Shown here: positions 34,836 to 37,057 of the stretch, in pieces
Layout of the letters: each line of letters starts with the position of its first letter
Position numbering within the stretch: position 1 is the first letter of the stretch
Notes under the pieces: generated by a model
Databases searched by the model: none
Told to the model about the DNA's origin: nothing
Seen by the model: the letters and a program-made list of their open reading frames with translations, nothing else
Made by a program: the position numbers and the translations under genes
DNA from: Mucilaginibacter sp. UBA5151
Lineage (GTDB): Bacteria > Bacteroidota > Bacteroidia > Sphingobacteriales > Sphingobacteriaceae
Assembly (NCBI GenBank): GCA_002413785.1
Contig: DHXR01000052.1
Span: 7,380-71,379 of the forward strand
DNA length: 64,000 nucleotides
Direction: 5' to 3'

Positions 34836-34868
34836 AGACTTACGAAGTTTTTAAAACTTCGTAAGTCT
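34836..34868. repeat. REP palindrome containing the CGNR gene stop codon
   Basis: AGACTTACGAAGTTTTTAAAACTTCGTAAGTCT. Confidence 0.88.
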
Positions 34869-35532
34869 TTGGATAATTAACCTCTGTTTTAACACCCTTC
34901 CTGATTTTGTAATATCGTTTATCGCTGGGTATGCGTCCGCAGGTTGTTTGGTTACACCAGCGCCTGGCGTTGTTTTTCGTCCTGTCCAAAAACAGGCTGC
35001 CGCAAGTTTTGCATTGCTTAATCCTTTTTGGATTGGCTCCTAACAGCAGTTCGGCGGCAGACCGTAAAACTATCCATAAAGGCAGCAAAATCTCCTCATC
35101 AATATTAAGCCATACCAATTGCCAGCCATCGCTTGTACTTTCATAGCGTAAACTTTTTGCAGATGCATCCAGTCCGGAATTAAATTCCCGGACAAAAATT
35201 TCGTCTGCAGGTTCGGCTTTTATTAGCGATAAAAATATTTGGTGCAACATAAACCGGGAAGTAATTACCTGTTGAAACGCGGCTTTTGCCTCACTAACGT
35301 AGCAGTACGCTTCCAGACTGATTGCCTGGTAATGATCGTATGCTATAACCCCTGCCCTGTTGCACCAATATAAAAAATCTTCGTAATCGGTTAAAAAATC
35401 TTTCGGGTTTTCACTTCCCCGGTCTTTCAGCGTGTTTACAAAATTTAATGCGATTGCACCGCCGTCCAGGGGGCTCATTGTGTCTTTAAAATGCTGCAGG
35501 CGCTCCCGCGCAAGAACTGATTTAGCTTTCAT
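34840..35532 (-). CDS. CGNR zinc-finger/ABATE-domain protein
   Basis: GAIALNFVNT; C-terminal CKTCGSLFLDRTKNNARRWC...CG. Confidence 0.88.
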   Translation of the reverse strand: MKAKSVLARERLQHFKDTMSPLDGGAIALNFVNTLKDRGSENPKDFLTDYEDFLYWCNRAGVIAYDHYQAISLEAYCYVSEAKAAFQQVITSRFMLHQIFLSLIKAEPADEIFVREFNSGLDASAKSLRYESTSDGWQLVWLNIDEEILLPLWIVLRSAAELLLGANPKRIKQCKTCGSLFLDRTKNNARRWCNQTTCGRIPSDKRYYKIRKGVKTEVNYPKTYEVLKTS

Positions 35533-35577
35533 GATAATATTTGTGTTTAGTGGATTTTAAATTTGCCCTAAATAGGC

Positions 35578-35745
35578 AAATTACGAGGAGCTAAATGCGT
35601 TTAGCCCCTCGTGATTTTATCGGTTTGAGGAGCTAAATACGTTTAGCCCCTCGTAATTTTTTCGATTTGAGGAGCTAAATGCGTTTAGCCTCTCGTAATT
35701 TTTGCCGTTTGAGGAGCTAAACGCGTTTAGCCCCTCGTAATTTTT
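35578..35745. repeat. Tandem array of four 42-bp hairpin units
   Basis: GAGGAGCTAAA-n4-TTTAGCCCCTC starting at 35585, 35627, 35669 and 35711. Confidence 0.95.
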
Positions 35746-36094
35746 GGACTGTTTTAGCGGGCAACAGCCTTCGGTAAAGGCGCAAAAACGGCCCCTGTTG
35801 CATGTAAACAAGGTTTTTAAAAGAAAAATGAACCTGGGATCAAAACGAGCCGGAATTTTTCCGGGTATTTTTACCGGATAATTTTTATAAACTTGAAATT
35901 TGTGTTTTTTAGATCAGCGGCAGACAGCCCTGATCCCGATAGTTCTGAATAATTATACAAATATAGCAAAATTGACTAATATAATTAGTAAATTCCGGAA
36001 GATTTCTATTGATTATTATCGGATAAAGAACACCAGACAACCCTTATAAAAAGACAATTAATTTTTATATTTGTAAGTAAAAGGAGGAAAGGTT

Positions 36095-36313
36095 ATGAAA
36101 ACAAATATTTCTGCAAATAAAGGGTTGTTCAAAACCCACAAGTCATATAGTCCCGAAGAAATATTGGCGGCCGGCGGGACTACTGCATTTGGCCGTCGGT
36201 CAGGGAAAAACAATGCTACACTTATTAAGGCACTCGAAAATGCTCCGCCAATAGAACCTTTTACCGATGAGGAGTGGGCTGATTTGATGGATCAACTTGC
36301 AAAGGATAAGTAA
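36095..36313 (+). CDS. Putative antitoxin
   Basis: 72 aa; stop overlaps the PIN start (TAATG); TATATTTG promoter at 36066-36073. Confidence 0.75.
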   Translation: MKTNISANKGLFKTHKSYSPEEILAAGGTTAFGRRSGKNNATLIKALENAPPIEPFTDEEWADLMDQLAKDK

Positions 36314-36771
36314 TGAATCTTTTACTGGATACCAATATTATCTTAAATATAAACAGGGCGAGGAATTTTATTGGTGCTGTCAGTTTCATTAACCCGGAAG
36401 ATTCTCCGATGTATATTTCCGTGGTTTCAGAAGCCGAAATAAAATCACTCGCAATTAGAAAAAAATGGGGGATAAACAGGCTCGACGTTCTTAGTGATTT
36501 TTTAGATCAAGCCCATGTAGTCGAGGTCAATCAATCATTTATAGCAACTTATGCTGAAATAGATGCTTATTCCCAACGATTAAACCCGAACTTTGAAAAT
36601 TACCCTTTTAATACGCCGCGTAACATGGGAAAGAATGACCTATGGATAGCATCCCTCGCAGCTTTGCTGGGTTTGAGGCTTGTTACTACAGGCTCCGACT
36701 TTGACCACCTGCATAATGTATTTTTTGAGGTTAAAAAAATAAAGCCTGCTGATTTTGTTCCTTTTTTTTAA
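36313..36771 (+). CDS. PIN-domain (VapC-like) toxin
   Basis: LLDTNII, SEAEI, GKNDLWIA, DFD. Confidence 0.9.
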   Translation: MNLLLDTNIILNINRARNFIGAVSFINPEDSPMYISVVSEAEIKSLAIRKKWGINRLDVLSDFLDQAHVVEVNQSFIATYAEIDAYSQRLNPNFENYPFNTPRNMGKNDLWIASLAALLGLRLVTTGSDFDHLHNVFFEVKKIKPADFVPFF

Positions 36772-37057
36772 GTTTAACCAGGAATTGTATCCGCCCTGTT
36801 CAAATGCTCCAAATTGACCATGGCGGAATTTATAGCCATCCGCTTTTCCGCCTTTGTTGGAGTTGTCTCCAACAAACCGTGTGCAAAGTAGAAACCATAA
36901 CCGAAGTGTTGTTGCAGATAGCCCAAAACCGCCTAACATCCCTGCTTTATGAAAGCATTGCGGAGTTGTCTGAACCCGAATTTATCGAATTAATGAATTT
37001 TTAGAATTCCGGTAATTCCTGAATTCTGTAAATTCTGATTCAGAAAAAAATGCAACC

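Follow-up and report, generated by a model that had tools for sequence, protein, structure and literature searches.

What does a tandem array of palindromes do in front of a gene for a CGNR protein? In the 64,000-nucleotide stretch of Mucilaginibacter sp. UBA5151 DNA analysed here (the window; C85:7380-71379 of the source genome, G000, which comprises 4.74 Mb in 87 contigs), four 42-bp units lie immediately upstream of a minus-strand gene for a protein with an ABATE and a zf-CGNR domain. An earlier note on this DNA had offered two readings of the array, i.e. an autoregulatory element of the CGNR gene or a new type of repetitive extragenic palindrome (REP) or bacterial interspersed mosaic element (BIME). 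Each reading was half right: the unit is dispersed through the genome, and arrays are linked to CGNR genes across species; the part that did not stand is an operator private to this one gene. Judging from sequence comparison, we favour with moderate confidence the reading that the array is a cognate binding-site array of CGNR/ABATE proteins, an autoregulatory leader element that would be ancestral in the genus and would later have been joined to a promoter cassette and dispersed in the manner of BIMEs.

[quoted passage not shown] Proteins of the ABATE/zf-CGNR family (formerly DUF1470) are predicted to bind DNA as dimers and to sense a ligand (PMC2954205). In the searchable literature, we found no DNA or RNA target, regulon or ligand for this family; the arrays are a concrete candidate target for proteins with a solved structure, and the paralogue-specific flanks of the units would allow the design of specificity swaps. 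Moreover, the clade-restricted spread of a promoter-plus-array element to ~45 sites is a natural system in which to follow array dispersal, uniformity within a genome and type switching at orthologous sites. The same questions of dispersal and uniformity have been left open for REP/BIME since the 1980s, and here they come with an identifiable candidate protein partner. If the favoured reading is true in its more far-reaching form (see below), the arrays would represent a natural case of a regulatory network rewired by a dispersing operator-array module; if the CGNR link is spurious, what remains is a new BIME-like repeat family in Sphingobacteriaceae, of modest interest.

Four phased palindromic units precede the CGNR gene

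Each unit in the window is centred on the 14-bp palindrome CTAAA-YGCR-TTTAG, and the unit palindrome reads GAGGAGCTAAA-YRCG-TTTAGCCYCTC, followed on the plus strand by a T-rich linker (Table 1). Tandem Repeats Finder reported a period of 42 with 3.8 copies, 90% matches and no indels at 35585-35745, and a repeat search of the window returned three overlapping 77-nt copies at offsets of exactly 42 and 42. Moreover, the 26-nt palindrome GAGGAGCTAAATGCGTTTAGCCCCTC had four sites in the window at up to 3 mismatches compared to none in 100 shuffles. These results bear out the earlier description of four units with an exact 42-bp period; the distance to the gene was also given correctly, with 46 nt between the outermost base of the array (35578) and the end of the CGNR start codon (35532). 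Because the 42 bp between unit centres equal four helical turns, all core sites lie on one face of the DNA.

A coding repeat was rejected as an explanation: one minus-strand frame is open through the 42-nt units, but the arrays in two related genomes (G157 and G063) have a period of 43 nt, the open frame of the window terminates within the array, and most loci have no gene context. A clustered regularly interspaced short palindromic repeat (CRISPR) array was rejected as well, given that the 12-16-nt linkers are themselves conserved and that the 46 arrays of the genome are short, with a fixed 3-5 units. On the plus strand, TAAATTTG at 35558-35565 lies just left of the array and is directed into it; this may be chance, as such motifs occur genome-wide at 1.16 per kb.

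The spacer between array and gene contains no -7 box and, therefore, the array must lie within the CGNR transcript or its promoter region. The -7 motif that the earlier note had placed on the minus strand is indeed present: from the CGNR ATG to the neighbouring gene, the minus strand has no TAnnTTTG other than TATATTTG at 35965-35958. TAnnTTTG is the -7 consensus of the Bacteroidetes sigma-ABfr (PMC7366714). The box is conserved in G164 and at the promoters of CGNR paralogues, and a long CGNR leader starting from it would fit the architecture conserved in orthologues and paralogues, although this fit is not proof.

Upstream of the box lies the palindrome CTAATATAATTAG, which may be a second operator. 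This promoter palindrome, CTAA-W5-TTAG, was rejected as a mark exclusive to CGNR genes because it also precedes a gene on C60 with a RhuM-like product (judged by eye). There, at G000 C60:22424-22460, CTAAATATATTAG is combined with TATATTTG, an arrangement otherwise found at CGNR genes; 600 nt further on lies a three-unit array with the variant stem GATGAGC/GCTCATC, a compensatory change.

Arrays are dispersed through the source genome beside unrelated genes

In G000, the palindrome of the window units (family A) has 111 sites while its reversed control has none. For the minimal core CTAAA-N4-TTTAG, 178 sites in 54 clusters were detected, with ~11 expected by chance from base composition. At least two cores are present in 46 of the 54 clusters (24 with four, 12 with three, 6 with five and 4 with two), and of the 124 steps from core to core within clusters, 118 measure 42 and the remaining 6 measure 84. 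Within an array, the units are of one polarity and follow each other head-to-tail at 42 bp. Read in the orientation of CGNR transcription, they fall into type A (108 units; AATTACGAGGaGCTAAACGCaTTTAGCtcCTCaaac..) and type B (59 units; tTTTaTCACgcCCTAAAcGCgTTTAGCCTtCagaa..), which agree only in the core and in a short TTA..C motif of the 5' flank; mean pairwise unit identity is ~79% for A and ~71% for B.

The array-adjoining genes are functionally unrelated (among them S12, L13, Tex, GDP-mannose dehydratase, sigma-70, PBP, MlaE, aldolase and DPP-IV). Because 46 arrays in G000 adjoin such genes, we conclude that the array is not a private CGNR operator; dispersal of the unit is part of what the earlier note had named as speaking against one. 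As in REP/BIME, short imperfect palindromes are present at high intergenic copy number.

At the window locus, only ~175 bp are repeated elsewhere as such. At most other loci, two conserved boxes, each containing TATATTTG, lie upstream of the array in the orientation of the window minus strand. The distal box, TTG-N20-TAnnTTTG, has the form of a full Bacteroidetes promoter that would be directed into the array, and 40 of its 42 genomic copies adjoin arrays. Moreover, 39 of 45 arrays have a co-oriented TAnnTTTG 30-95 or 140-300 nt upstream of the first core, with ~6 box occurrences expected by chance. Upstream of the array, related modules are homologous over 180-245 nt (70-88% identity), giving an element of ~400 nt. 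In most pairs of modules, homology is detectable in the boxes alone; near-identical copies were not seen, the best pair being 88% identical. Homologous promoter parts can carry different array types, e.g. A at C5:12474 and B at C69:20669. In an alignment of three related modules with their flanks, the copies being at least 12% diverged, neither terminal inverted repeats nor target-site duplications, the marks of a miniature inverted-repeat transposable element (MITE), were found.

Between the two promoter boxes of several modules lies a GTAG-tagged hairpin, GTAGAGACGCGATGCATCGCGTCTCTAC (e.g. L010:1360-1400, G000 C14, upstream of rpsL), which is also present in CGNR leaders of several species (G157, G063 C34 and G000 C16). 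The variable part of the module seems to attract REPs.

On the plus strand, family-A units read as a hairpin followed by GTAATTTTTT, and the arrays could be tandem intrinsic terminators or insulators that stop transcription arriving from the CGNR side. For 44 arrays in G000, the next ORF is co-directional at 29 and convergent at 15, so that 15 of 44 arrays have a gene converging from the side in question. By contrast, the window locus and 29 of the 44 loci lack a gene that reads into the array in the terminating direction; a hairpin with a U-run occurs only in type A on one strand, type-B units having A-rich linkers and no stable hairpin; and the CGNR stop codon already has its own 33-bp palindrome at 34836-34868. 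An intrinsic terminator thus fits the units poorly, and we consider a terminating or insulating role of the arrays highly improbable.

Massive dispersal is confined to a few species

In the 60 relatives searched, the exact type-A palindrome had no match. Using a generalised core, adjacent core pairs at 42 bp number 130 in G000, 80 in G095, 66 in G123, 40 in G063 and 10 in G164, and 0-2 in each of the other 146 species, i.e. massive dispersal is confined to 5 of the 151 sampled species of Mucilaginibacter. When flexible spacing was allowed, five array loci were detected in G157, three in G086, two in G007 and one in G167.

Upstream of rpsL, the proximal box and an array are present in G000, G095, G063 and G164, and the array is of type A in G000, of type B in G095, of a type called gamma (GGTACCCAAAAC) in G063 and mixed in G164. 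At gmd, G000, G123 (93% identical over the module) and G063 have the array and G164 does not; at tex, G000, G123 and G095 have it, and G063 and G164 do not. A search with the 5' end of 16S rRNA, made to view the region upstream of the rRNA operon, had no match in the G000 assembly. The comparisons at rpsL, gmd and tex show that array positions can be old, that arrays are gained or lost on the timescale of speciation, and that the unit sequences of each genome are homogenised or exchanged. Such behaviour has long been known from palindromic units in E. coli and Salmonella.

CGNR genes of two subfamilies carry arrays across species

In G000, both CGNR genes have an array before the called ORF start, at 59 and 66 nt. 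Only ~10 gene starts in this genome have an array within 150 nt, and both CGNR genes are among them; by our estimate, the probability of this by chance is of the order of 1e-5. The second CGNR paralogue (group 2; 39% identical; gene at C16:124614-125270, matched at C16:124638-125228 on the minus strand) has a five-unit type-B array 66 nt upstream. Orthologues of the window gene (group 1) in G095, G164 and G063 have an array just upstream of the start, each in the unit type of its own species, and the G164 locus keeps the leader and the promoter including the palindrome CTAATATAATTAG beside the -7 box. In group 2, the paralogues in G123, G063, G157, G167 and G086 (two genes) have a conserved promoter that is followed, ahead of the ATG, by 3-5 units with a period of 42-43. 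Over both subfamilies and nine species, all 12 genes examined carry an array, and at these genes a conserved cis-element lies between the promoter and the start of the regulator, as in an autoregulatory operator. The search upstream of CGNR orthologues that the earlier note had proposed has, thus, a positive outcome, for the orthologues in G095, G164 and G063 and also for paralogues in species without dispersed arrays.

The linkage persists where arrays are few. The CGNR-gene array is the sole array found in G167, and in G157 one of five arrays is at the CGNR gene; CGNR genes look like the home site of the arrays. Proteins at least 60% identical to the window CGNR protein are present only in array-rich genomes, and a single-protein scan for it returned only four already-known loci. 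Moreover, the two array-rich genomes that are 100% complete (G000 and G063) have as many unit types as CGNR genes, with a separate type at each gene. In G000, group 1 is paired with type A and group 2 with type B. In G063, three CGNR genes are paired with types alpha, beta and gamma; alpha and beta are dispersed, and gamma is also present at rpsL.

In other CGNR subfamilies, arrays were present at 0 of 11 genes examined. Among 148 genomes from other genera of the order, CGNR genes are rare, with five copies in four genomes, and none of these copies has an array. In one of the other subfamilies (L064, L066, L067 and L056-L058; G255, G256, G006, G079, G133 and G119), the CGNR gene is divergent from a gene for a membrane protein, an EamA-like transporter by eye, and instead of arrays there are two intergenic palindromes, TTTACTAYC..GRTAGTAAA. 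These palindromes are likely the operator of this divergent subfamily; paired palindromes in a divergent promoter region are as expected of a DNA-binding autoregulator.

An alternative explanation is that the arrays are selfish or neutral mosaic repeats, similar to BIME or BOX, without a specific tie to CGNR; the ~400-nt module would then have spread by recombination or transposition and been homogenised by gene conversion, and the association with CGNR genes would reflect an insertion preference or an old insertion inherited by paralogues. Such an origin is consistent with the dozens of intergenic copies beside unrelated genes, the species-specific unit sequences at orthologous sites, the differences in presence among species at gmd and tex, the switching of array type between otherwise homologous modules, and the richness of G000 in other repeat families. 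It is difficult to reconcile with arrays at all 12 genes of two CGNR subfamilies even in genomes with 1-5 arrays, with a separate unit type for each paralogue, and with an array length held at 3-5 units. Similarly, neither terminal inverted repeats nor target duplications were seen among the three aligned modules, the best pair of copies is only 88% identical, and two of the three RAYT genes of G000 are flanked by other, GTAG-tagged REPs. Altogether, we regard a selfish repeat with no tie to CGNR as improbable.

Core and phasing rather than folding are conserved

The window array folds to -81 kcal/mol on both strands, with z-scores of -11.6 and -9.3. The type-B array before the second CGNR gene barely beats shuffles (z = -2.07 on both strands), and its internal units pair over 5 bp. 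The emphasis of the earlier note on an RNA hairpin as a feature of the family is, therefore, not supported; the long hairpin is a derived trait of type A. That note had also pointed out that the stem closes with a G-U pair on the minus strand as opposed to an A-C mismatch on the plus strand. While this asymmetry exists in units 1, 2 and 4 of the window, it carries no weight: the two strands fold equally well and, in 85 family-A units, the position has AT 23, GT 17, GC 19 and AC 25 with no covariation. As evidence for a hairpin of the mRNA strand, the asymmetry is not supported. One other stem position does covary in family A (GC 54, AT 9, AC 18, GT 4).

By contrast to folding, the 14-bp core with its YGCR centre, the 42-43-bp phasing and the length of 3-5 units are conserved across all types. 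Conservation of core and phasing rather than of folding favours recognition of double-stranded DNA by a dimer, with neighbouring dimers on one helix face.

The arrays might instead act at the RNA level, as transcribed, structured or protein-bound leaders or as small RNAs in which the repeated stem-loops or CUAAACGCAUUUAG motifs would be the binding sites of CGNR or of some other protein; the arrays would then act on mRNA stability, elongation or translation, or serve as a CsrB-like protein sponge. The position of arrays downstream of co-oriented -7 boxes (39 of 45), their place within the sole plausible leader at CGNR genes, the fixed polarity of units relative to transcription, the very strong folding of family-A arrays and the one covarying stem position all agree with such a role. 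They are set against type-B and gamma units, which have only a 5-bp A/U-rich stem and fold, in the case of the type-B array, with the z-score given above; against the lack of an energetically favoured strand and of covariation at the R/Y stem position; and against the central YGCR, which preserves the palindrome and would not be needed by a hairpin loop. Rfam 15 matched only tRNA in the window, the best sub-threshold match being RyfD (27 bits, cut-off 42), and a known RNA family was ruled out by the lack of a match at the gathering score. Because units are polar and lie in a presumably transcribed region, two features that speak against a plain symmetric DNA site, an RNA-level role retains some probability; we consider it unlikely.

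A CGNR-binding operator array as the favoured explanation

The window protein matches ABATE (PF07336) with 39.2 bits (cut-off 24.4) and zf-CGNR (PF11706) with 37.1 bits (cut-off 24), i.e. it is above the curated cut-offs for both domains, and the zinc-finger cysteines are invariant in the alignment. Its similarity to the 3H0N sequence is marginal (E = 0.6). On the favoured reading, the binding site would be the 14-bp palindrome CTAAA-YGCR-TTTAG with type-specific flanks, and the array would provide four phased sites for a dimeric CGNR/ABATE regulator encoded immediately downstream. The palindromic core would suit a dimer, because Jann_2411 is a dimer with both monomers at the putative DNA-binding site (PMC2954205). 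The arrangement seen across Mucilaginibacter, which would be ancestral, comprises a promoter, ~200 nt, 3-5 units, 45-110 nt and the CGNR start codon, which is the layout of an autoregulatory operator array inside a leader. We infer that bound protein would oligomerise along ~170 bp and block or modulate transcription from the upstream -7 box, with release set by a ligand sensed by the ABATE domain. In a clade of at least five species including the source, the array would have been joined to a ~400-nt cassette with two promoter-like boxes, and copying of this module to ~45 other intergenic sites would have made transcription there CGNR-dependent. The present distribution resembles that of a REP/BIME-type mosaic element. 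What the sequences show is the anatomy of the array, its dispersal, its linkage to CGNR genes in several species, the agreement of unit type with paralogue and the orientation of the promoters; that CGNR binds the array, that it does so on DNA and not on RNA, and in which sense it regulates are inferred.

We count for the favoured reading the constraint on the arrays, i.e. their narrow length range, the spacing of 42 in 118 of the 124 steps, and the unit identity that is kept while the modules diverge. In its more far-reaching form, CGNR/ABATE regulators, a widespread family, would in general recognise phased arrays of 14-bp palindromes in their own leaders, and the array with the promoter cassette of one clade, at ~45 loci, would constitute a new global regulon in which each paralogue has its own type of site; we put this forward tentatively.

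Several observations weigh against the favoured reading. The genes downstream of arrays have no common functional theme, and 15 of the 44 arrays face a convergent gene. G123 keeps type-A arrays although no group-1 CGNR gene was found in its assembly, which is 86% complete, and the orthologous locus is occupied by a TPR gene; in G095, the CGNR orthologue has an internal TAG. The differences in unit type at orthologous loci such as rpsL are not what one would expect if regulator and site type were strictly paired. Finally, the units are polar, the central tetranucleotide in the transcribed orientation being CGCA in 59, CGCG in 32, TGCG in 9 and TGCA in 2, and 59 CGCA versus 9 TGCG fits an RNA-level or strand-specific role equally well; likewise, the arrays lie downstream of putative promoters, in a region that is presumably transcribed.

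The CGNR orthologue with the internal TAG (L044; G095 C385:391-1017, metagenome-assembled genome SMAG_U7760) is either a pseudogene or an assembly error.

Comparison with known repeat and operator systems

The arrays are similar to REP/BIME of enterobacteria and pseudomonads in consisting of short imperfect intergenic palindromes (here ~170 units per genome), in clustering at regular spacing and in having sequences that are species-specific even at orthologous sites; REP/BIME are also thought to bind host proteins. Species-specific palindromic units were reportedly described for E. coli and Salmonella by Gilson et al. in 1987. The REPs of a BIME alternate in orientation, whereas the units of the arrays are all head-to-tail; moreover, the arrays are fixed at 3-5 units and coupled to promoter-like boxes and CGNR regulator genes. 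One end of a REP palindrome carries a conserved tetranucleotide, GTAG or CGTC (PMC3733652). Neither tag is present in the unit consensus of type A (AATTACGAGGaGCTAAACGCaTTTAGCtcCTC) or type B (tTTTaTCACgcCCTAAAcGCgTTTAGCCTtC). G000 has three full-length RAYT genes (PF01797, Y1 transposase), and the nearest 42-nt unit is at least 2.9 kb away; around two of them lie GTAG-tagged REPs of their own, and no 42-nt unit lies within 2.9 kb of the third. The missing tag, the RAYT genes not flanked by units and the lack of alternating orientation ruled out a RAYT-mobilised REP.

Two RAYT-like genes, at C8:41467-41811 (L030) and C22:174867-175211 (L034), have their own GTAG palindromes, TTTGTAGAA..CGGGTTACCCCTA and TTTTGTAGCAACGGGTTTTAACCCGTTG, respectively. 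Therefore, G000 has at least two classical REP-RAYT systems besides the arrays.

Pneumococcal BOX (boxA-boxB(n)-boxC) and neisserial Correia and NIME elements are also modular, intergenic and a few hundred nt in length, with a ~45-nt tandem internal module. Some of these elements carry promoters and affect neighbouring genes. They differ from the arrays in that no sequence relationship was detected (no Rfam match), that no terminal inverted repeats were seen in the three modules aligned, and that the arrays are tied to a regulator family.

Autoregulatory operator arrays of bacterial transcription factors consist of several phased palindromic sites and repress by roadblock or looping. With them, the arrays at CGNR genes have in common the dimer-sized palindromic core, the helical phasing at 42-43 bp, the position between the promoter and the regulator's own start codon, the conservation across orthologues and the specificity for paralogues. 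They differ in that 4-5 candidate sites extend over ~170 bp far downstream, at roughly +200 to +375, and in that dozens of unrelated loci have received a copy of the array together with a promoter cassette.

Features of the locus and its neighbours

Table 1. Features of the CGNR locus in the window (positions of the window)
Feature	Position	Strand	Remark
Gene for 230-aa ABATE + zf-CGNR protein (group 1)	34840..35532	-	Pfam matches; proposed trans-acting partner of the array
45-nt spacer between array and CGNR start codon	35533..35577	-	No -7 box
Family-A array of four head-to-tail 42-bp units	35578..35745	.	Unit: extended palindrome ACGAGGRGCTAAA-YGCR-TTTAGCYCCTCGT and T-rich linker on the plus strand
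Core of unit 1, 14-bp palindrome CTAAATGCGTTTAG	35591..35604	.	Part common to all unit types and species
Core of unit 2, CTAAATACGTTTAG, 14 bp	35633..35646	.	
Core of unit 3, 14 bp	35675..35688	.	
Core of unit 4, CTAAACGCGTTTAG, 14 bp, perfect palindrome	35717..35730	.	Promoter-proximal in the direction of CGNR transcription
Leader segment of ~210 nt between putative promoter and array	35746..35957	-	Conserved with the orthologous locus of G164
Bacteroidetes-type -7 box TATATTTG, putative CGNR promoter	35958..35965	-	Implies a leader of ~420 nt
13-bp palindrome CTAATATAATTAG	35975..35987	.	9 nt upstream of the -7 box; common to array-bearing CGNR promoters of several species

At 34836-34868, between the CGNR gene and a convergent cystathionine-beta-synthase-like gene, lies AGACTTACGAAGTTTT-A-AAAACTTCGTAAGTCT, a perfect palindrome of 33 bp that overlaps the CGNR stop codon. 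Copies that are 95-100% identical are numerous in all four related genomes, and the palindrome probably represents a separate REP-like family of bidirectional terminators.

On the other side of the array, a 72-aa ORF and a gene for a 152-aa PIN-domain protein (36095-36771), with overlapping stop and start codons, form a VapBC-like toxin-antitoxin pair that has its own TATATTTG at 36066-36073. Further on, an ~85-nt repeat at 36966-37050 (Tandem Repeats Finder period 9 at 36977-37008) is unrelated to the 42-nt units; it has many copies at 78-94% identity in G123, G095, G063 and G164 and is another dispersed family.

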